A DNA stretch of 64,000 bases. Source: Chiloscyllium plagiosum (Eukaryota). How positions within the stretch are numbered: the first letter of the stretch is position 1; every line of letters starts with the position of its first letter. Location: NCBI RefSeq assembly GCF_004010195.1, contig NC_057718.1, forward strand, positions 69,711,213 through 69,775,212, in the 5' to 3' direction. The translations under genes and the position numbers were made by a program. The notes under the pieces are model-generated. The model searched no databases and was not told the DNA's origin. It was given only the letters and a program-made list of their open reading frames with translations. Shown piece by piece: positions 21,601 through 64,000 of this stretch.

Positions 21601-21974
21601 ACTAGGGCATGGAGTAGACATGGCGGAAGAAGAGCTCCATATCATGGTGGGCCCAGAATTTGTTGAAATGGGGACTGACATTTATGTATATTAGTCCTTT
21701 CCTGAGGACAAACCGTTCGGCCTTAGAGTTCAAGATGAGGGGGGATCTATGGCAAGGCTCAAGATGAGGTTTTGGGGGTGGGGAAGGGAGTTCCTCAGGG
21801 GGAGAGGTGTATTGTGAGATGGTTGGGTAAGGAGGTAGAGCTGGTGTGCTAGCTGGCTGCCTGCAGGTAGGTAATAGGACTCCGGGGTGAGCCTGGGAAA
21901 TATAGTCAGAGTTTTGATTGCAGAGTGGGTGGAGGCAGAAGCTGGAGGGAAGTCAAAGCTGGTCAGAGTGTTTA
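21600..21974 (-). mobile_element. Penelope ORF N-terminal fragment (target of the Tx1 insertion; continues ~23503-23560)
   Basis: AERFVLRKGL..PHFNKFWAHHDMELFFRH. Confidence 0.6.
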
Positions 21975-23502
21975 ATTTTTTTTATTTCAAAAATATACTT
22001 TATTCATAAAATACTTTGATGGTCTGCACAGTTGGACATGCCATAGATACGTAAACATTCCATTTCTTTGCATACCGAAAACAGAGTAATCATTCCTATT
22101 TACAGGTCCGTACGATTACATTTTTAGCTGAGGTGTCAGCAGAGCCCAAATGACTGCTTGGGCCCCCTGTTCTTCTTTAGGCAGGCAGACGTTACACAGT
22201 GGTCTTTCCCCACCGCGCCTTGGCGGCAGCTGCCCCAAGCGTCAGCGTGTCCCTCAACACGTAGTCCTGGACCTTGGAATGTGCCAGTCTGCAACACTCA
22301 GTCGTGGTCAACTCCTTCAGCTGGAAGATCAACAGGTTTCGGACCGCCCATACAGCGTCCTTCACCGAGTTGATGATCCTCCAGGCACAGTTGATGTTCA
22401 TCTCGGTGTGCATCCCGGGGAACAGGCCGTAGAGCACAGAGTCCCGTGTCACAGCGTTGCTCAGGACGAACCTTGACAAACATCACTGCATTTCTCTCCA
22501 GACTTCTTCTGCGTAGGCACATTCAAGAAGGAGGTGTGTGACAGTCTCGTTCACCCCCCGCAGCCACTTCGAATGCAGTATGCGGTGCGGCTGAGAGTTC
22601 AGGCATGCATAAAGGATCTCACAGGCAGAGCCCTTCTCACCACCAGCCAAGCCATATCTTGGTGCTTGTTGGAAAGTTCTGGCGATGAGGCATTCTGCCA
22701 AATGGCTTTGACAGTCTGCTCAGGGAACCGCTCGACAGGATCCGCCCTCTCCTTTTCCCGAAGGGTCTCAAGGACACGACGTGCTGACCACTTCCTGATG
22801 GACTTGTGGTCAAAGGTGTTTTTCTTCATAAACTTCTCACCGAAGGACAGGTGATCTTTTATGGATGTTGGGCAGGCTTTGAGAGTCAGGAAGTCAGTCT
22901 TCTGTTGCAGGCTTCCCAGCGTCTGACCTGCTGTTGTATCCACTGTATTGATATGGTAAGTACAATTCAATTGCTGGTCAATGATAAATTACCAAATTAT
23001 TAATCAAATTGTTCATTATTCAGTTACTGCAAACAGCTCCCGAAATTCTTAATCCATTTCTTTAAAGATACCTCAAAGAGTTAATGCAAAGTGTGATTAG
23101 TTCTGGTTATAGAAAGCTGAATATGCTGAATCTCACTCAATTATTCCCAGAGGAGATCTTACATAGTGACAGCAATGTCCAGGTGTGAGGTGGAAGTGGC
23201 TCATGAGGCACAGTGTTGTAACTGCCTTGTTGCAGTTTTACTGTCAGATTAGTGTGTTTTACATTTCAGCAGATATTCAGGCATTCGAACTGGTCACAGA
23301 TGCACATGAGTCTGCGCATGGATAGCGGATCCGAGCAGAAAACGGCGACGTCATCCATGTACAGGGAGGCCTTAACCTGCAGGCCCCCGCTGCCAGGAAT
23401 AGTCACCCCTCTCAGGCTCGCATCCTTCCTGATGGACTCGGCAAATGGCTCTATACAGCACACAAACAAGGCAGGAGAGAGAGGGCAGCCCTGCCTGACT
23501 CC
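21975..23502 (-). mobile_element. Tx1/L1-clade LINE, 5'-truncated, with an internal foreign segment
   Basis: GVRQGCPLSPALF..LYMDDV; C-terminus ETVTHLLLEC..ARWGKTTV*; A-rich tail; TSD AGTGTTTA at 21967-21974 and 23503-23510. Confidence 0.88.
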
Positions 23503-23739
23503 AGTGTTTAGTGGGCAGAATCCAGGGCAGCATTGCCAGAGATGTAGTGATGGCAAATGTTAAACCAACTGGCCATCTCTATCTACTTATTTTAGCAAGC
23601 AAGCCATCAGGGATCTTATCAGTCTTCAGCCCCATTAAGCATACTAGTTATTTTCTCTGACTAGAGAAAATGGAGTCAGATGTCTACATCACATTAAGTC
23701 TGCTTTAGCCCATTAAGTTTGCACCAGTGAAAAACAACC

Positions 23740-43200: not shown

Positions 43201-43690
43201 ACTTGCTCATGGTACTGAGAGTGATCCAAATATTATTCCCCTAGAGGACGTATGTTTAATTTCTGCCTGACTTCCTATATTCTCTCCTCAGAATCTTGTC
43301 CTTTTCTCTTGCTAGGTCTTTAGTTTTAGACCTCCTGCTGTCCCTCTCCCCTTTTAGAATATTCTGTAACCTCTCCAAGACATCCTTGATCCTGCCATGA
43401 GAGAGGCAACACACCATTCTGATTTCTCATTGTCGGCTACAGAAACATATGTTTGAGCCTCTGCCTAGAGAGTCCCCTATCACAATTGATTGCTTGGAAC
43501 CTGACACACTCCTTATTATGTTAGAACCAGTCTTGGTAGCAGAAACGTGGCTGCCAGTGCTACATTCCCCCTGAGAGTCCATCACCCCCTATTTTTTGAT
43601 GTGGGGATGCCCCCAGGAGATTCATGCACTACCTGCCTTCCTCTCCTACCTTTCCTGGAGGTAACCCACCTACCTCTCTATTCAGTATCT
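40272..43690 (-). mobile_element. Long CR1 LINE (ORF1 esterase-like part + ORF2), decayed
   Basis: IVIGDSL (SGNH-type ORF1), VGDFNFQNIDWD, NYRPVSLTSVVG, WAEEWQMQFN. Confidence 0.9.
40868..40975. mobile_element. Small foldback/MITE-like insertion
   Basis: ~41-bp inverted arms GGAGAATTTGACCAAAA...TTTTGGTCAAATTCTCC flanked by a GACCAAT direct repeat. Confidence 0.75.
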
Positions 43691-51570: not shown

Positions 51571-54003
51571 TTATGGTGCAATTGTCAGGAACTATTGCAT
51601 GAGAGCTCTGGACAAGCAATGCATGGTCACAGCACAACTGACTTTTAAAGATGGTGCTGGTACCAGGGATGCCAATCAAGTTTAGGATCCCAGCAGTGGC
51701 AAATATGGAAAGGTGGAGATGGAATTGGATGAGAAGGGAAGGACAAGTAGTTAATAAGGTTAATTGGCAAGATACAGTGAGAACTCTGGCTAGGCCTTGA
51801 AGAAAAATCTATAAAATCCTGTGCAACTAATAGGCGAAAAAATACCATGTAGCCTCAAGTCTTCATTGAGTACACAATGTTTGAACAACAAAATGTAAAT
51901 TGGATCAAAGGGCATAACCTCATGGGTCTGATATTCCTCACAGGAATCTTTATTGAAGTTAAGATTTTAAATCTCTGTCATCTAGAGAAGTTGGCCACAC
52001 ATTGCTGCTTTATTCAAAACTTGCAGTTCCTCTCATTTTCCTCTCATTTCCTCTCATGCCTTGTCTTTAACAATGTCTAGACTTCATCATTTTTTCCTGA
52101 AACTTGAAATAGACATGATGCAGAACATTTATATTATTTATTAAATATTCCTCTGCTTTATTTGTAGCTTAATTTGATAATTTCCAATTATATCTTAGTG
52201 CTTAATCTTATTTCTGTAATTGTGACATAGTTGTTTATATCAAAGTTGTGACTGTTGTTTGTATGTTTTTTATGTTATAATGGTAAAATTTATGTACCAG
52301 AACAAATGTAAATAGCTTAATCTTAGTTTACTTCTTGATTATTTTATATTGAAGAACTAGTCCCATCTACTAAGTAGTCAATCTATTATTTATTATTATC
52401 TATTATTTAATTGAAGGTATGAACTAACGCAAAGTTACAACATTAAAAATGAAGAAAATTATCTGATATGTAGCAAAACTAATGAATATTATTCTGCTTC
52501 ATAGGTGTTGTTCTAGTTTTGAAACATTTTACTACCCTTCTTTATCTCTTATCTTTTACACATTTTGTTCATAAAGACATAAGCTTATTTCATCTTAAGT
52601 GATGACGTGATATTTGTGGGCATACTAGTAGAAACTTAAGACTCGGTGACAACAGAGGAATCTGGTAACGTAATGCCTTCTGGTTCCTCTTTTTGTAAGG
52701 TTAGTTTAGTAAAAATGTCTGTCAGGTTGGAAGGTTGCATTGTCAAGATAACATATTTAAAAATTAAATAATTTATTTGTGGTTGAAGAGAAAGGAATTT
52801 GTGATAAGGTAGATGTGCCTCTGTGTTGTCACTACAGTCTGTAATATCTCATTGGTTTTGTTAGGCCACGTGGGCATCCACGCATTTCCAGCCCTTGAGT
52901 CCTGTCTTGTGCATTATGGGTACCGGATTAAATGCTACCTTGTTAACAAACTGCAGTGACAAGAAACATTTCCCTTTAGATTCACTACTGGTTGAAAGTG
53001 GCATCCAGCAGGCAGAGGAATCGTCCTGGTAGATTTGAAATGAGTAGAACATACTTTTGTTTAATTAGAAGCTTTGTTGGACCACAGAAGCGACAATTTG
53101 CACTGAAACTGGGGCTGCCTGTGTAAGGATGTTCAGAACATAGCTGACGAAGACAAAGAGGGAGGATAGCAATGGGCCAATGAGAAATCATAGGTTATCA
53201 AGGGAGAAAGCTGCACTGTAGAGGCAACATCTGTGTCTACTGATGGGTCACGAAGCATGATTGTGGGAAATACGGTGTTATTGAGGAATGCCAAAACGTC
53301 ACTAATGAGGTTGTGAGAGTTGGAGATAAGAGAGAACAGGATCAGTGCAATAGTTTGCAGTATGATGACAATGGCTGATGGGACAATGGATTAATGGGGT
53401 GTGGAGCAGGTGGAGACTGCTTTGGACAGGGGGAAGAAACTCTTATTGTTGCAGGACAAATTGAAGGAGAACTTGGAGGAAGGCATTGCTAAAATATAGG
53501 TCCACTTGATGTTTGCTCTGAGACATAATTTTAGAATAAACAGGTTGGCAGCAGTTGAGGTTACTTAGGGTTGGGGTAGATAATCAGATAGTAGCAAAAA
53601 TGTATCAAAATATAGTATAAGAGAGCATTCAAGGGGCAACGTTAGGCTTACCAAAATGAGATGTCAACTTGGTGAAGCGACACCACAGGAAAATTTGCAT
53701 TCCCAAACAACGGAAGCAGCATGCATTGGCAGGGCAAAGCAATCCTACAAGTAACCGATTAGATCAAAGTTCTGCAGTCCTGCTACATACAGTCATAAAT
53801 CATGGTAGACAACTGAACAACTAACTGAAGGGGAAGGCTCCATAAATATCCCCATACTCAATGGTAGGGGAACCCAGCACATCAGAGCTGAAATGTTTAC
53901 AACAATCTTCAGTCAGAAGTTCCAAGTGGATGATCCATTTCAGCTTCCTATGTCCCAGGCACCAATTGGTGGAAGCATCAACTGTGAATGCAAGGATGCA
54001 ACA

Positions 54004-54258
54004 GCCTCTGGCAACTCTCTGTGTGAAGTTTGCACATTCTCCCCATGTCTGTGTGGGTTTCCTCCGGGTGCTCCAGTTTCTCCTACAATCCAAAAATGTG
54101 CAGGTTAGGTGAATTGGCCATGCTAAATCACCCATAGTGTTAGGTGAAGGGGTAAATGTAGGAGAATGGGTCTGGGTGGGTTGCGCTTCGGCAGGTCAGT
54201 GTGGACTTGTTGGGCCGAAGGACCTGTTTCCACACTGTAAGTAATCTAATCTAATCTA
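54004..54258 (+). mobile_element. HE1-type SINE, 5'-truncated
   Basis: SINE body with GTAATCTAATCTAATCT tail. Confidence 0.88.
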
Positions 54259-55302
54259 GCTCCATTAAAAATGAGATTCTGAAAGTTTCACAGATGTGGC
54301 AACTTTTCTCCATTTCATCTGACGTGAATTAATTTCCCAGGCATTTTGGGGCTTTCAAGTATGATATCTTATCTCCTTTAAGCCTTGACATGGTGCATCA
54401 AAGGCACAGGTTGGGTGATCAACACCATCTGCACTCTGTTCTCTTGTACTCTAGGCAGCTGTGTTTATCAGTTACAAGATACAAAGCAGGAACACAGCAA
54501 AGCTAATTTGCCTGCAATCTCCAAACCCTCACCATGACCTGCAGGTTACTTTCCAACCACACACCAGCCCGACATTGGACTTGGAAATTAAATTACATTC
54601 CTTCACTGACAGTGACTTAAAATCCTTGAACCCTTCCAAACAGCATTGTGGGAGTGCCTTTGCCATGGGTACAGCAGTGGTTTAAGCAATTGACCACTAC
54701 CTTCTCAAGGGAAATCAAGAATAGACAATTCAGGCTGGCCTAGCCAGCACTCACATCACATTAAAGCAGTAAACCAAATACAGTTGAGGCTATTCAGTTT
54801 GTAAGGGGAGAACGGGAAGATGAGAAGGTAGCAGCAGAAGCTAATGTCATATGGAAAAGGAAAGATCAGAAGGTTCTAACAGCAGTTATATCTCAAGGCA
54901 TCTTCACACAGCCAGGATTGCAGAAAATGCTTGCCACAGTTGTCCTTTAACTATGCCCTTGAATCTTGAAAATCCTTCGGAATGTAGTGATATTGATTTC
55001 TGGCTTGCCCCTACTGCATGATTGGTATCTCAAACTTATGGAAAAATCATATCATTGTGCAAGTGAAAGTGACAAGTCAGATGACTGGTCAGAATACAAA
55101 GATCAGCAGAGAAATTACTAAATGATTAATCAATTCAAATAAATGAGTGCATGAAAGGAAGCTTGCTAGAAATATAAAAACAAGAAGCGGTACTGAGCAA
55201 CCTGATGATGCTGTGGGTTGATACGTCTCTGGGTCTTTATAGACTTCACCTATTACTTTCAAAACTTTCATGTTTCATATATTAAGTATTTCTGGAATTC
55301 AT

Positions 55303-55685
55303 AGAGTCCATACAGTGTGAAGCAGGCCAGTTGGCCCATTGAGCCCACACAGGCCCTGTTAAGAGCATTCCTCCTAGACCCACCATCTACACTATCCCTG
55401 TAAACCTGCATTCCCCAGGGCTAATTCATCTAGTCTGCACATCCCTGGAACACTATAGGGCAATTTATATGGCCAATCCATCCAATGTGCGCATCTTTGT
55501 AGAGATGAGCCTACAAGTAACCGATTAGATCAAAGAGATGAAACCAGAGCGCCAGGAGGAAACCTACGTAGTTACGGGGAGAATGTGCAAACTTCATACA
55601 AACAGTTGCCTGAAGGTGGAATCGAAATTGAATTCCTGGCACTGTGAGGCAACAGTACTAACCACTGAGCCACTGTGACACCTCG
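55303..55685 (-). mobile_element. Older tRNA-derived SINE
   Basis: GGAGAATGTGCAAAC and AACCACTGAGCCAC motifs. Confidence 0.75.
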
Positions 55686-55814
55686 CAATAGACTTCATCT
55701 GAAGTTCTTAGAAAGGGTTGCTAATGAGGTAATACTGCTGTTAATTTTCCAAAATTCATTACATTTTGGTAAGGTTTCATGACCCCAGAAGAAAGTAAAT
55801 ATAAAGACAATCTT

Positions 55815-56027
55815 ACATGAGAGGTAGCTTCCCAGGCAGGGGAAATGTTCCACATTTGGCAGGATTTCTCCATTAATCTTAATGAAGAGATAGACCAGAA
55901 CTTGACCTGGGATGTATTGATAAAGGGGTTGAGTCTTCTTGACGTTGAAGCTGAGACCAATTCTTCAGTATGCATCCACAAGGCATTTTGTAAGGCTTGA
56001 AGATTCTCGTCTGAGAGAGCAGATATG
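55815..56027 (-). mobile_element. RTE-clade LINE RT fragment
   Basis: AY*RIGLSFNVKKTQPLYQ..IKINGEILPNVEHFPCLGSYLS. Confidence 0.7.
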
Positions 56028-56262
56028 TGAAATAACTCCACAGAAGCTGGTATCAGTTCACCAAGTCACCCCTTATTTAAACATGCATAGTATGTGGACT
56101 CTGTTCAGCTAGCTTAGAGCCAGTCCTTAGAGTGAGGAGACTTTTGAATCTCCTGTTTATATCTGTCAGCTAGGGTTCCCTGATTATCTCAGGTTAACAG
56201 CCTTAATCAGGGAAATCATACTTGATGAGATCCTCCTGGCCAACCTTGTTCCAATCATGACA
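56028..56262 (-). repeat. 3' LTR of the Gypsy element
   Basis: TG...CA termini, adjacent polypurine tract (plus strand TCCCTCCC at 56263), homologous to 62546-62670. Confidence 0.8.
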
Positions 56263-57814
56263 TCCCTCCCACACTATGTCTGGAGATGTTAGCCTGTTCT
56301 TTTTCTTGAAGCTCCTCTTGACACTTTTTCGCCCCAGGTCCATTAGCTCTGACTCTGACTCAGATACAGGTGGCATGTATTGGATCATAGCCCGTCTCTT
56401 GCACCTGGAGCATCTGAAAGGAAATTCATCCTCTTCTTCAGGTGGTAACAGTATCAAGGCTGCGATATTAACTGCATTTTTCTTGGACTCTGAGGTTTCT
56501 TTGAAGCTAGACAGAGAGGGAGAACCCATGTTTTGTGACAGCCTTTCTGGCTATTCGAAGGGACCGGGTATGTTTTTCTCCAGCCCTGTTTGCGAGATAG
56601 CAGCTTTCATGTGATCCACATGTTTGTTCAGGACCACCTCACCTACCTGAACTTTGTATGTCACAAGACCTAGCATCAACCTTGCCTTGTACCATGCACA
56701 GCCATGTCCGTGGTTTCAACACCAAACCTTGTCCCATGAAGTAAACTATCTTAAAAAAAGGCATATGGCTGGCCTGGCATTCTTGATACAATTTCACTCT
56801 CCCTTCCAGATCCAGGAATATCAGGTTTAACCTGGTACAGAGTTTTCCTCCCATCAGCACTCTGTTTGAATTATTGCTGTAGATGCATGAGAGGTAGTTC
56901 TATAATTAAACAGGAATTGGGACAATTTGGTATCAAGTGAAGCATTAAGCTTCTTTAAGGCTGCCTTTAATGTTTGGATTGCTCTTTTCACCAGACCATT
57001 TGAATGGAGCTGTTCGAACATGCGAAATGCCTTTCAATTTTAGGAAATACTTGAAATCCCTGCTGGTAAATAGCATCCCATTTTTGGCTACGTCTGCATT
57101 CAATCCTGGTCACCAAAAATAAAGTCTGCTAGCATCCTCATTTTGGAAACCCCTGGATAACTCTTGTGTCTGGCATTGACCTTTACTCTTCATAATAATA
57201 TGTCATCCTCAATGCTGATCTGGTCTCACCAGGTCTAGAAAGGTTTCAATCCTAGTTGTGATGGCCTTTTTAATTTCCCCATCATCACCAGTTGTTTTAG
57301 TTTTACCAAGACGGGATCTTTTCGTGGCCACAGTTGGATATTATCAGCAGTGACCGGAATATGGTCCAAAAAATTTAAAACCAGAACAGACTCTCCCAGG
57401 GATGCACTACTAGTGGTGATCTGCCAGTGGGAAGCAGCTGAAGGTACCTGCATTTACCCCTTGGCCTCCTGGTACTGGTGAAACTTTCTCACACAAAAGG
57501 TAACCAGACCTTCCTTCTGGTGCATTTGCAATCAGCATCAGCCAACATCTGGGATGCATATGCTTTTGGATGTTCCTCTCCATTAAGCCACTGGTGAGTC
57601 ATCACTACTCCCATACTACACAGAGAGGCATCACCTGTCAGCAGCACATCTCGCTTGGGATCGTAGTGGGCCAACACCTCTGACAATGATAGCTACTTTT
57701 TTACTTCCCTAAAAGTCACTTCTTGGCAATGTGACCATTTCCAAGAATGACATTTTTTCAGTAGCATGTGCCAAGATGGAGGCCAAGTTACCTATAAATT
57801 TTCCGTAATATCCA

Positions 57815-59345
57815 GTCCCTCTACACCTCCATCCACCATGACCAGGACCTCCAAGCCCTCCGTTTCTTCCTCTCCCGACGTCCCCAACAGTACCCTTCCA
57901 CCGACACTCTCATTCGTTTGGCCGAACTGGTCCTCACCCTTAACAATTTCTCCTTCGAATCCTCCCACTTCCTCCAGACCAAAAGGGTGGCCATGGGAAC
58001 TCGTATGGGCCCCAGCTATGCCTGTCTCTTTGTTGGCTACGTAGAACAGTCCATCTTCCGTAATTACACCGGCACCACTCCCCACCTCTTCCTCCGCTAC
58101 ATTAAAGAGTGCATTGGTGTCACCTCGTGCTCCCGCAAGGAGGTTGAGCAATTCATCAACTTCACCGACACATTCCACCCTGACCTTAAATTTACTGGAC
58201 CATCTCTGACACCTCCCTCCCCTTCCTGGACCTCTCCATCTCCATTAATGATGACCGACTTGACACTGACATTTTTTACAAACCCACCAACTCCCACAGC
58301 TACCTGGATTACCTCTTCCTACCCTACCTCCTGCAAAAATGCCATCCCGTATTCCCAATTCCTCCGCCTCCGCCGTATCTGCTCCCAGGAGGACCAGTTC
58401 CACCACAGAACACACCAGATGGCCTCCTTCTTTAGAGACCGCAATTTCCCTTCCCACGTGGTTAAAGATGCCCTCCAACACATCTCGTCCACATCCCGCA
58501 CCTCCGCCCTCACACCCCATCCCTCCAACCGTAACAAGGACAGAACGCCCCTCGTGCTCACCTTCCANNNNNNNNNNNNNNNNNNNNNNNNNNNNNNNNN
58601 NNNNNNNNNNNNNNNNNNNNNNNNNNNNNNNNNNNNNNNNNNNNNNNNNNNNNNNNNNNNNNNNNNNNNNNNNNNNNNNNNNNNNNNNNNNNNNNNNNNN
58701 NNNNNNNNNNNNNNNNNNNNNNNNNNNNNNNNNNNNNNNNNNNNNNNNNNNNNNNNNNNNNNNNNNNNNNNNNNNNNNNNNNNNNNNNNNNNNNNNNNNN
58801 NNNNNNNNNNNNNNNNNNNNNNNNNNNNNNNNNNNNNNNNNNNNNNNNNNNNNNNNNNNNNNNNNNNNNNNNNNNNNNNNNNNNNNNNNNNNNNNNNNNN
58901 NNNNNNNNNNNNNNNNNNNNNNNNNNNNNNNNNNNNNNNNNNNNNNNNNNNNNNNNNNNNNNNNNNNNNNNNNNNNNNNNNNNNNNNNNNNNNNNNNNNN
59001 NNNNNNNNNNNNNNNNNNNNNNNNNNNNNNNNNNNNNNNNNNNNNNNNNNNNNNNNNNNNNNNNNNNNNNNNNNNNNNNNNNNNNNNNNNNNNNNNNNNN
59101 NNNNNNNNNNNNNNNNNNNNNNNNNNNNNNNNNNNNNNNNNNNNNNNNNNNNNNNNNNNNNNNNNNNNNNNNTCCTCTCATTTATCTCTCCACCCTTTAG
59201 GCATTCTGCCTGTATTCCTGATGAAGGACTTTTGCCCGAAACTTTAATTTTACTGCTCCTCGGATGCTGCCTGAACTGCTGTGCTTTTCCAGCACCACTA
59301 ATCCAGAATCTGGTTTCCAGCATCTGCAGTCATTGTTTTCACCAA
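57815..59345 (+). mobile_element. Penelope-like element RT (spans gap)
   Basis: VAMGTRMGPSYACLFVGYVE, LRYIKEC (decayed YIDD), AIPYSQFLRLRRICS; terminal repeat with CTGATGA..GAAA at ~59218-59242. Confidence 0.92.
58568..59172. other. Assembly gap (N run)
   Basis: Ns in the sequence. Confidence 1.
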
Positions 59346-59711
59346 ATCAAGGAAAGACCTAAGTTCTGGTATAGACATGGGAGCTGGGACACATTTGATC
59401 GCTTTTATTTTATGTTCCAATGGGTGTAACCTTGAATGAACAACTCTGTAGCCCAAGTAGTCCACTTGGGGTGCTTAGAACACACACTTTTCCCATCTAG
59501 GACCTATGCCTGCCTGAGAGAAATATTTAAACACCATGTCTATGTACTCCAAATGCATTTCATTGGTCTTTCTGATTACTAGCACGACTTCCAGATAAAT
59601 GGCAAACTGGGGTTAACCTTGCAAAATGTTGTCCATCATCCACTGGAAAAGGGCACAGGGTGATAATACCCCAAATGGCAGTCTTCTATATTGGTTCAAG
59701 CCCTTATAGGT

Positions 59712-60019
59712 ATTAGATTTTTAGATTAGATTACAGTGTGGAAATAGGCCCTTCGGCCCAACAAGTCTACATCGACCCGCCGAAGCGTAACCCACCCATA
59801 CCCCTACATTTACCCCTTACCTAACACTACGGGTAATTTAGCATGGCCAATTCACCTAACCTGCACATTTTTGGACTGTGGGAGAAAATCGGAGCAAACC
59901 CACGCAGACACAGGGAGAATGTGCAAACTCCATACAGTCAGTCGCCTGAGGCAGGAACTGAACCTGGGTCTCTGGCGCTGTGAGGCAGCAGTGCTAACCA
60001 CTGTGCCACCGTGCCGCCC
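59712..60019 (-). mobile_element. HE1-type SINE
   Basis: Full-length copy in Gypsy pol. Confidence 0.9.
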
Positions 60020-60677
60020 ACTAATTGTGGCAAACTTCAGGGACTCCTCTTCATACACAATTAGAGGTATGCATGGCTCATGTTCTGCTTTGTGACAGAC
60101 AGCTCCCTCCCCTCTAGGCAAGGGACAGGGTAATTACTCAGCTACAAGAAGTGGTTTACTATTGGCTTAAAATCCCCATGACGGCAAACCAACCCATCAG
60201 GCTTCACAATTGGTATAATTGTCCCAATGTCATTTGCCTAGAAAAAAAAACACATTCTTTTCACATGCAGGGCTCAGTCTTCAGAGGCAGCATCAAACTA
60301 GTCAAGCTTCCCAAATAAAGGTGCTGCCCATTCCACAAATTGTACTAATTGTTTGTTGATCCCTTCATTTTCCAGCCTCATTTCTGCCTCTACATTTGCA
60401 CATAAGGCACTGGGTGAGTCTTGCAGAAACATGGTTTGTCTTCCTGACCACTATGTAAGGTAGTCTTGGCTCCTTTGGAAGTCCCTAGACCTTCCTGAAA
60501 ATCTTTCAGGTATTTAATTCAGGCAGCCATTTTCTAACTGAAAAATGTTGAGTCAATCAAGGTGAATCATTCTCAACCAATTCTGCCCCATCACGCTTGA
60601 GCCTGAGAATTTTACCACAATCAGTGGTGATTGCACCAACTACTTCTCATGGGACAGTGGAACCAAAGTTGAACCTG

Positions 60678-60985
60678 TGGGTGGCACGGTGGCACAGTGG
60701 TTAGCACTGCTGCCTCACAGCGCCGGAGACCCGGGTTCAATTCCCGCCTCAGGCGACTGACTGTGTGGAGTTTGCACATTCTCCCTGTGACTGCGTGAGT
60801 TTCCTCCAGGTGCTCCAGTTTCCTCCCACAGTCCAAAGATGTGCAAGTCAGGTGAATTGGCCATGCTAAATTGCCCGCAGTGTTAGGTAAGGGGTAAATG
60901 TATGGGTGGGTTTCGCTTCAGCGGGGCGGTGTGGACTTGTTGGGCCAAAGGGCCTGTTTCCACACTGTAATGTAATCTAATCTAA
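60678..60985 (+). mobile_element. HE1-type SINE
   Basis: A and B boxes; (TCTAA)n tail. Confidence 0.9.
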
Positions 60986-61700
60986 TGTTAATCTGTGGAA
61001 CCTTAATCTGTAACAAAACCCCGATTATACATTTTCAGTCTGACCAAGTTCATGTGTAAACTTAAGGGTTAGAGTCCAGAGCAAATCTTGTTAAAGACTG
61101 GTTCTGCAATCACTGACACAAGCTGCACTGATATTGACCTCTATTAGCAGCAGGTGACCATTTCACCAGGCATTTATTTTGGTTGGTTCTGATTTTGATG
61201 TTGCTAAGCAATTTAACTGTTCCAAACTACATGTAGGTGGACTTGCCAAAGTGTGCACTATTCTGGATACTGGTCTATGAATTCTCTTACTCACATCAGG
61301 CCTCATAGGGCACCTTTGCTGCTTCAAGTCCACATACCAACAGCGACAACAATGGCTTGCCGGCCTGGATTCTGAAGAAAATTGTAGCCGACTTTATTTT
61401 CAGGTTTTGCTGTGTGCTAACCTAGGGTCCTTCTGCTCAGGATATGTCCTGTGTGAGGCTATGCAATTGAGTACACTCAAGTGGTGTTCCCCACACTCAG
61501 TCAGACAGGTGAGGATGTCTATTTCCATCAGGGTACCCTGTAGCTCACTTGCTCCTCTTGCCACATTTTCTATTGACTCAGCTAATTGTTGTATCTGTTT
61601 GTAGTCCACTTGGGCTTTGTTTAGTAGATATTTTCGCAAGATTAATCCCACATTCCAAATGGTCTGTCAGCATCTCATTCAGTGTTAAACCAAAATCACG

Positions 61701-61832
61701 TAGAGTCATGGAGATGTCTAGCATGGAAACAGACCCTTCGGTCCAACCTGTCCATGCCGACCAGATATCCCAACCCGATCTAGTCCCACCTGCCAGCACC
61801 CGGCCCATATCCCTCCAAACCCTTCCTATTCA
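61701..61832 (-). mobile_element. CR1 extreme 3' end
   Basis: Matches 1173-1305. Confidence 0.8.
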
Positions 61833-62051
61833 TTGTCTTAATTACGTCAAAAATCCGAATATAGATTCCCCTGGTTTTTGAATTGCTGAGTAAAGCTGAA
61901 AGCATCACAGAATTGGGGTTGTAATATTCTTTAATTAAATCCAGTAACTCTTGAAAGACTTTTGAAAACTCTTTAGTATCTGGTGCCTCAGAGAAATTTA
62001 GGCTCCTATTAACCAAAAGTGCTCAGGCCCACAAGCAATCATAAGAATTTT

Positions 62052-62357
62052 GGGCATCATGGTGGCTCAGTGGTTAGCACTGCTGCCTCACAGCGCTAGG
62101 GATCCAGGTTTAGTTCCAGCCTCAAGTGTTTGTCTGTGTGGAGTTTGCACATTCTCCCCATGTCTGGGTGGGTTTCCTCCCACAGTCCAAAAATGTACAA
62201 GTCAGGTGAATTGGCCATGCTAAATTGTCGATAGTGTTAGGTGTGTGAATCAGAAGGAAATAGGTCTGGGTAGGTTACTCTTACTCTGGGAGGGTCAGTG
62301 TGGGCTTGTTGGGCCAAAGGGCCTGTTTCCACACTGTAGGGAATCTAACCTAATCTA
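62052..62357 (+). mobile_element. HE1-type SINE
   Basis: GGTGGCTCAGTGGTTAGC head; CTAATCTAA tail. Confidence 0.88.
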
Positions 62358-62545
62358 ATTATTTGTTGCTTTTTCAACTGCCCCAATGTCATTTGCCCAG
62401 ACAAAAAACATATTCTTTTCATATACAGGATTGAACTGGTCAAGCTTCCTAAATAAAGGCATGATCCTAGAAAGGCTTACCACTACTCAAAGATGACTTT
62501 TGCAAGCAAAATGTCTAGGAGTGTACAGTTTTATTTCGTCACCAC

Positions 62546-62670
62546 TGAAATAACTCCATGAAGGCCGGTATCCCATCACCAAGTCACCCTTAATTTATAT
62601 TTGCTCAGTACATGTAGCTGGCTCAGAGCCAATCCCGAGAGTGAACGTAAACTCTGACACTCCTGTTTAT
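62546..62670 (-). repeat. 5' LTR of the Gypsy element (R/U5 side), interrupted at its TATA box
   Basis: Aligns to 56028-56160 up to CTCCTGTTTAT, where the alignment breaks. Confidence 0.8.
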
Positions 62671-62807
62671 TTATTTTTTTCTTTTCTTTTTCTTTCAGTT
62701 TCTACCACTAGGAAGAAAAGAAACACTCAAGTGGCCAGTGACAAGCAATGCCCTTCACATCAAAACACTCCTGGTTTTTTTTGTTTGTTTTTTTCTCTTC
62801 TTTTTTT

Positions 62808-63094
62808 CAACAGGCCCTTCGGCCCAACAAGTCCACACTGACCCTTCGAAGAGTAACCCACCCAGACTCCTTTCCCTCTCACTAATGCACCGAACACCAT
62901 GGGCAATTTAGCATAGCCAATTCACCTGACCTGCTCATCTTTGGACTGTGGGAGGAAACCGGAGCACCCGGAGGAAACCCACGCAGACACGGGGAGAATG
63001 TGCAAACTCTACACAGTCACCAGAGGCTGGAATCGAACCTGGGACCCTGGTGCTGTGAGGCAGCAGTGCTGACCACTGAGCCACCATGCTGCCC
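62808..63094 (-). mobile_element. HE1-type SINE with poly(A) tail (array unit B)
   Basis: Complete tRNA head; body ends at GGGCCTGTTG followed by an A-rich tail instead of (TCTAA)n. Confidence 0.88.
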
Positions 63095-63107
63095 TCACAC
63101 TCCTGTT

Positions 63108-63460
63108 AATTTTTAAAAATTTTTTGCTATACCAATTTCCATTTAATTAGTAGTAAGAAAAAGACTGAGGAATTAGTGACAGCTATTGCGTTTTCATACA
63201 GAAGGCACAGAATATCCCATATGACAGGGAATCACAGATTGCAGTCAGTTCAGTCACTCTCCCCCCACGGTGAGCCTGTCAAACAGGTACTCTCCCAGGC
63301 CATTCTCAGGGGCTCCCAATCTCTTCAGGTTGGTGATATGATCTCCCAGATTCTTGATCATCTTCACTTGCTTATCCAGGTAGTGTCCCTCCAGGAAGTC
63401 ACAAAGATGAGGGTCCATGTGGTCAGAGGAGAATTTGTGCAGATCCAGCAGACTCTAGTT
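63108..63460 (-). pseudogene. Ferritin (heavy/middle-type) processed pseudogene, 5'-truncated (array unit C)
   Basis: [63 protein letters not shown], then 3'UTR, ATTAAA and an A-rich tail. Confidence 0.95.
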
Positions 63461-63559
63461 ACACTCCTGTTTTTTTTTGCGGGTGTGAGACACAGTGAGA
63501 GACACAAGGTGTATGAATCTTTATTCAATTTCCACCACCAGGAAGATACACTCCTGTTT

Positions 63560-63977
63560 TTTTTTCTTCTTATTTTTTAACCCCCACACTACCGCCTAAC
63601 TGTGGTAGTGCTTATTTTTTCCCCAGCACCCATGGTGTGCGTGTGCAGGTGTGAGACACAGTGAGAGACACAAGGTGCATGAATCTTTATTCAATTTCCA
63701 CCACCAGGAAGATAGGAAAACACCCGGGTGGCCAGTGACAAGCACTCCCCTTCACATCAAAGGGCAGTGCTGTGTGATCAAACAGTGAGGGGGAGGGTAG
63801 GGACTAAATCAAAATAGAGTTGGAGGGAGAAATAATGCACTCCACTCCCTGCGGCGCCCACCTCTCCCTGAACAACTCCAGGGTGTTGGTGGACACCCCA
63901 TGCTCCTTCTCCAAGGACACCCGGGCCCTAACGTAACTGCGGAAGAGGGGCAGGCAGTCGGCACTAACGACCCCCTA
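63560..63977 (-). mobile_element. Tx1-clade LINE 3' end (array unit E); shorter copies at 62669-62764 and 63473-63547
   Basis: ORF2 C-terminus DCLPLFRSYVRARVSLEKEH..LELFRERWAPQGVECII, stop at 63804-63806; 3'UTR shared with units A and D. Confidence 0.8.
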
Positions 63978-64000
63978 TCACTCCTGTTTATTTTTTAAAA

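Follow-up and report, generated by a model that had tools for sequence, protein, structure and literature searches.

We describe a stack of retrotransposed inserts lodged in the long terminal repeat (LTR) of a Gypsy-like element in the shark Chiloscyllium plagiosum, and propose, with a probability of about 0.8, that a LINE family of the Tx1 clade targets this LTR site. The site overlaps a TATAAA that, judged by its position alone, is likely the TATA box of the LTR. All coordinates refer to the window, the whole stretch of 64,000 nucleotides of contig NC_057718.1 that was analysed. A preliminary description of this DNA had proposed that a LINE strikes the Gypsy LTR at its TATAAA and inserts in the same orientation; our analysis bears this out, assigns the LINE to the Tx1 clade, and finds the association repeatedly at this locus and also at other shark loci.

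The Gypsy-like element and the stack in its broken LTR

The two LTRs belong to an old, decayed and dead Gypsy-like element on the minus strand, which is riddled with stops and other insertions. The intact 3′ LTR (56028–56262, minus strand) is 235 bp long, has TG...CA ends and is homologous to 62546–62670. Just ahead of it, read on the minus strand, lies a polypurine tract (56263–56274), which, like the putative primer-binding site named below, was recognised by sequence. The decayed pol region (57522–59720, minus strand) retains reverse transcriptase (RT, ~59442–59720; RVT_1, E = 1e-8) followed by RNase H (~57522–57737; RT_RNaseH_2, E = 9e-11), and is broken up by an N gap and a further LINE-like insert; in its decayed frames, Pfam detected no integrase, gag or protease. 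A putative primer-binding site that starts with TGG (62533–62544, minus strand) lies one base past the end of the 5′ LTR, whose R/U5 side (62546–62670, minus strand) terminates in the first target copy (62657–62670). The hallmarks of a Ty3/Gypsy element, namely two direct LTRs, TG...CA ends, a motif resembling a primer-binding site and a polypurine tract, are present, and the start of the 5′ LTR lies beyond the window. The beginning of a gag-like region is duplicated internally on the minus strand, with one copy of ~105 bp within the RT region (60217–60321) and another, shorter by 20 bp, in the normal place (62376–62459).

From 62671 to the end of the window, the broken 5′ LTR is occupied by at least six inserts with poly(A) tails, stacked head to tail, every one of them sense to the LTR and accompanied by a copy of the target. 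Three are 3′ pieces of a Tx1 element; the others are a SINE, a ferritin retrocopy and an insert of which only the tail is visible. The copies of the 14-bp target begin at 62657, 62765, 63097, 63461, 63548 and 63978 and carry zero to two mismatches; six near-identical copies thus fall within 1.3 kb, and every copy separates a tail from the 5′ end of the next insert. All components lie on the minus strand. Insert A (62671–62764), which adjoins the R/U5 side, is a stub of the Tx1 3′ UTR with an A-rich tail and is 86% identical (66/77) to insert C. It is followed by target copy 2 (62765–62778; two mismatches relative to copy 1), the SINE (62779–63096), target copy 3 (63097–63110), the 5′-truncated ferritin retrocopy (63111–63460) and target copy 4 (63461–63474). 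Insert B (63475–63547), a second 3′ UTR stub with 97% identity (69/71) to insert C, is separated by target copy 5 (63548–63561) from insert C itself (63562–63977), a 5′-truncated Tx1 copy that retains the last 56 codons of ORF2 (63974–63804), a 3′ UTR with AATAAA and a terminal hairpin. At the edge of the window (63978–64000) stand target copy 6 and the tail of one more insert, which extends past the window. The three Tx1 pieces (62671, 63475 and 63562) end at differing distances from their common poly(A) signal region, namely at it, ~45 nt after it and ~125 nt after it, and the longest-ended piece terminates past a hairpin.

Two of the inserts are passengers of other origin. The ferritin retrocopy comprises the last 65 codons (63451–63254; Pfam Ferritin, E = 8e-6), a 3′ UTR, ATTAAA and an A-rich tail, and together with the flanking target copies these features mark it as a putative processed pseudogene. 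The SINE, which we take to be of an HE1-like family, has exchanged its usual tail for an A-rich one. A search for its 3′ motif returned 15 rows in the window, nine of them of the same SINE type; the eight that lie outside the stack all have the usual tail, and the A-rich tail occurs only in the copy within the stack. This switch would be expected if the copy had been moved by a poly(A)-dependent LINE.

No further pieces of insert A, insert C or the ferritin copy were found in 1–62600. This region contains 544 TTTA[AT] sites, none of which carries the Tx1 pieces of the stack, and the stack therefore represents a hot spot far beyond chance. A different, L1-type element with a poly(A) tail lies at ~21970–23530 on the minus strand, and its flank is unrelated to the target. 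A scan of 54000–64000 against Rfam gave a single match at E = 0.94, so the target corresponds to no known RNA gene.

The target site and its counterpart in the 3′ LTR

The strings on which the preliminary description relied proved exact: 56147–56165 reads AATCTCCTGTTTATATCTG and 62657–62670 reads ACACTCCTGTTTAT. The former is the empty target site of the 3′ LTR (minus strand), with TATAAA at 56161–56156, and differs from the occupied site by two bases. The segment 56028–56160 has 62546–62670 as its sole significant match within the window (blastn, E = 4e-12). Similarity of the 5′ LTR ends at 62670, the site homologous to TATAAA, and an A-rich tail starts there. For the U3 half of the 5′ LTR there is no match in the window; the stack reaches 64000 and the break is visible from one side. 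The 9-mer CTCCTGTTT occurs four times in 62600–64000 and, with both strands considered, once elsewhere in the window, namely in the 3′ LTR.

TATAAA is the only TATA in the 235-bp 3′ LTR (LTR position 102), and an AATAA follows 84 nt downstream. The 5′ LTR has a second TATAAA at 62594–62599, where the 3′ LTR carries AATAA; decay of a poly(A) signal is the likely origin. The U3 region also contains an inverted repeat with 11-bp arms (56176–56214) that ends ~15 nt upstream of TATAAA; its arms are possible paired factor sites and may help to mark the target.

Across the LTR pair, 95 of 123 ungapped columns are identical (77%, K2P 0.28). Given this background divergence, two or more differences within three bases have a probability of P = 0.13, and the two-base difference between the occupied and the empty site is expected from decay because the LTRs are only 77% identical.

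Tx1 identity and the association with Gypsy at other shark loci

The ORF piece of insert C aligns with the C-terminus of Xenopus Tx1 ORF2, with 18 of 42 residues identical (43%; E = 7e-9 for the C-terminal 52 aa). A protein search with the piece returned 18 proteins, two of them false: a mucin (P0003) and an immunoglobulin-domain protein (P0017), neither of which had a tblastn match to the window, were dropped. A profile built from ten sequences yielded 57 and then 8 further rows, including the Xenopus Tx1 149 kDa protein. The profile search returned YTX2 at E = 8e-24. The piece also matches the C-terminus of an alligator protein bearing Exo_endo_phos, RVT_1 and zf-RVT domains, and an APE endonuclease and RT are present in the homologues P0020 and P0071; the 5′-truncated copy in the window has neither. 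Among named relatives, shark gene models come closest. By sequence homology, then, the LINE in the stack is a member of the Tx1 clade, and the hallmarks of such elements (poly(A) tail, 5′ truncation and target site duplication) are all present. A single-sequence protein search and the ESM Atlas returned nothing, the LTR and Tx1 motifs had zero matches each in viral contigs, and profile scans of viral and prokaryote contigs gave no confirmed match. One match of the Tx1 motif in metagenome contigs had unrelated flanks and was dropped as chance.

For indirect evidence of targeting we turned to chimeric gene models. Of the 75 proteins retrieved, 29 bear a shark label: 26 are EukProt models, 11 of them confirmed as whale shark, and three are named records. 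In four of these 29 models, the Tx1 piece is accompanied by part of this Gypsy or of its LTR in the same orientation. In P0014 (whale shark), Tx1 follows a stretch of the Gypsy 3′ end that reaches 56261 and thereby just enters the 3′ LTR; in P0035 (whale shark), the segment 56670–56599 precedes Tx1; and in P0009, Tx1 precedes pol (RT) in the same sense as Gypsy. Predicted introns hide the distance between Tx1 and Gypsy in these three models. Judging by P0014 and P0035, 3′ LTRs may be struck as well, and the empty 3′ LTR in the window therefore reflects no rule of 5′ versus 3′.

The fourth model, P0008 (XP_072422303.1), is a CutA model of Chiloscyllium punctatum. In an extra segment of this model, residues 88–115 follow the U3 from 56256 to 56158 and end in TATAAA; the Tx1 part starts just past this point, at residue 118, in a junction that is read through protein rather than DNA. 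In a codon-aware scan the U3 match scored 42.8 bits, compared with 22.2 for the next best among 140 scans, and none of 1500 shuffles reached it; plain protein alignment of 71 proteins with the LTR translations gave weak matches only and missed P0008. The CutA exon is absent from the 64-kb window, and the P0008 junction thus probably represents another locus. The junction forms an in-frame segment of a RefSeq CutA isoform. Insert C (63974) and P0008 (residue 118) start at nearly the same ORF2 codon, perhaps through microhomology with the end of the target, or perhaps because a short non-autonomous form exists.

In the other 25 of the 29 shark models, no significant Gypsy or LTR piece was detected; models mostly omit flanks, hence this count gives neither a rate nor a refutation. 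None of the 46 other proteins matches the Gypsy element itself at E = 0.05. Other repeat types of the window gave two weak matches in the shark models (E = 0.009 and 0.015), excluding one L1-type RT homology. Two further models are suggestive only. P0013 reads from Tx1 through A-rich codons into a peptide that fits the target and R, ranking third and second of 13783 anchored starts, but when the scan was unanchored 13 of 60 shuffles reached its score, and it was left out of the count. In P0034, the Tx1 3′ UTR stands ahead of Tx1, an arrangement whose score was reached by 5 of 500 shuffles. A search of sequencing runs listed 24 runs, eight of them with DNA of the window, and no RNA run was among the matches listed.

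Proposed mechanism, alternatives and known systems

We propose that a Tx1-clade LINE with a sequence-specific APE endonuclease would recognise a site of ~11–15 bp overlapping the likely TATA box, nick its T-rich strand at a T-A step of TTTATA, prime reverse transcription on the poly(A) tail and cut the second strand after CAGGAGTG(T). With the positions of nick and cut fixed, the insert would always lie sense to the LTR. Each insertion would duplicate the target and so renew the site for the next insert, giving rise to a head-to-tail stack, and the same machinery may have copied other polyadenylated RNAs, here the SINE RNA and the ferritin mRNA, in trans. On the T-rich strand, GTTT precedes the start of the tail in target copies 4 and 5, and GTTTAT does so in copies 1 and 6. 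These starts coincide with the two T-A steps of the TATA complement, and the insert 5′ ends follow CAGGAGTG(T), which amounts to a duplication of 11–15 bp. Such junctions agree with target-primed reverse transcription. As described in PMC1950540, the Tx1L endonuclease nicks almost only its own site in vitro on naked DNA, and L1-type endonucleases favour poly(T)-A junctions.

Since target duplication renews the site, the U3-side copy should keep a whole TATAAA, and target-primed insertion would leave the TATA box intact ~10 nt upstream of the first insert. The LTR promoter would then survive but point into the newest insert, and Gypsy would lose its U3-R link. The idea in the preliminary description that the insertion disables the Gypsy element is logical in itself but moot at this locus, because the element already carries many stops and other insertions. 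The respective identities of inserts A and B to insert C hint weakly at growth of the stack toward U3. It is conceivable, but on the whole unlikely, that Tx1 aims at the TATA itself, captures the LTR promoter, silences Gypsy and places mRNA retrocopies in a promoter-ready site, with the U3-ward stack recording the order of events.

Several other readings share parts of this evidence. The LINE might simply like a short motif, or its own duplicates, anywhere, with an abundant LTR supplying sites and the hot spot feeding itself; the motif is indeed short and regenerated by every insertion, and most shark models with a Tx1 piece show no LTR piece. Yet four of 29 models carry one and the same Gypsy/LTR family in the same sense, against two weak matches to other repeats, and P0008 joins U3 to Tx1 at TATAAA, which makes a preference without dedication to the LTR quite unlikely. 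We also think it improbable, if less strongly so, that the nick is placed by TATA-binding protein or by open chromatin at the promoter, with adjoining bases of minor importance and inserts arriving only at the U3-proximal copy. The nick would fall within the TATAAA complement, the insert adjoining R/U5 is the most diverged (86% versus 97%), a weak age gradient, and the core of target copies 2 and 3 is more decayed than that of copies 4–6. However, a plain preference for T-A steps yields the same polarity, the gradient is drawn from three stubs that may belong to different subfamilies, TTTAT is kept in two of the six downstream copies, and the Tx1L endonuclease is specific on naked DNA (PMC1950540).

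A further possibility is that the stack arrived as one read-through transcript of an array at another locus, or arose in a single event through template jumps. The likeness of inserts B and C (97%) speaks for such an origin, and transcription of such an array could start from a U3 promoter lying upstream. But a target copy stands at every joint, whereas template jumps make none; internal poly(A) signals would cut a read-through RNA; the component parts differ in decay; and site-specific events would still be required at the source. We consider this origin highly improbable. A reading raised by the preliminary description is that of a protective variant, in which the two-base change left of the core shields the 3′ LTR. 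The change does sit where the second strand would be cut and the duplication ends, CACTCC is found in all six occupied target copies, and a near-site at 43506 with two core mismatches is likewise empty. Against this, the six occupied copies share descent from one site, and a single empty copy without an occupancy rate is uninformative. As one old copy whose difference arises with P = 0.13 by decay alone at 77% LTR identity, the sister LTR does not serve as the empty-site control that it had been taken for, and protection by the variant is a tentative idea that we would bet against, though not heavily. Dedicated targeting of this Gypsy LTR site by the Tx1 family remains our preferred reading.

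That Tx1 elements home to other transposons, LTR elements included, is an already published principle, and the habit is known from frogs and crocodilians; the fresh details here are the TATA position and the mRNA passenger. The shark family adds a precise target, the putative core promoter of an LTR, to the Tx1 target list, in a lineage for which we found no such report. Our literature search turned up no shark or TATA-box case of Tx1 targeting in a coverage that leaves out most subscription journals and Repbase, and for the target 9-mers only unrelated papers were among the matches listed. Natural variants across thousands of LTR copies would give a ready map of endonuclease recognition, which would help the study of site-specific retrotransposons. 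The presence of ferritin and SINE passengers points to an ability of site-specific LINE machinery to bring cellular mRNAs to one site.

Target-specific Tx1 elements are listed in PMC3747384, as are the shark SINE HE1 and HER1, the LINE that partners it. In crocodilians, according to PMC4494074, Tx1 families prefer a Mariner element, form tandem stacks and carry SINEs in trans, and flank-driven transcription has been proposed; the Kojima criterion given there for a target-specific LINE is that over 20% of flanks lie in one repeat. Tx1-8_Crp and Tx1-4_AMi are named there as preferring LTR retrotransposons and differ from the shark Tx1 in their crocodilian host; the text consulted leaves the type and position of their LTR unnamed, and a TATA site is possible there too (PMC4494074). 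Tx1-Mar with SINEU in Mariner-N4_AMi resembles the shark Tx1 in its fixed position within another transposon, its frequent tandems and its SINEs brought in trans to the same site, and transcription from its flank has been proposed, but its target is a DNA transposon and its passengers are snRNA-headed SINE families, as opposed to one protein-coding mRNA piece here (PMC4494074). Tx1L of Xenopus laevis in Tx1D (P0071) shares a homologous ORF2 C-terminus (43%) and site specificity within another mobile element, which in its case is a piggyBac-type DNA transposon and not an LTR promoter (PMC1950540). Keno in U2 snRNA genes and R2 in 28S rDNA are likewise site-specific in a repeated, transcribed target (PMC4494074). 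R2 depends on transcription of its target, whereas use of the LTR promoter by the shark Tx1 is putative; and unlike the Gypsy LTR, the targets of Keno and R2 are host RNA genes (PMC4494074).
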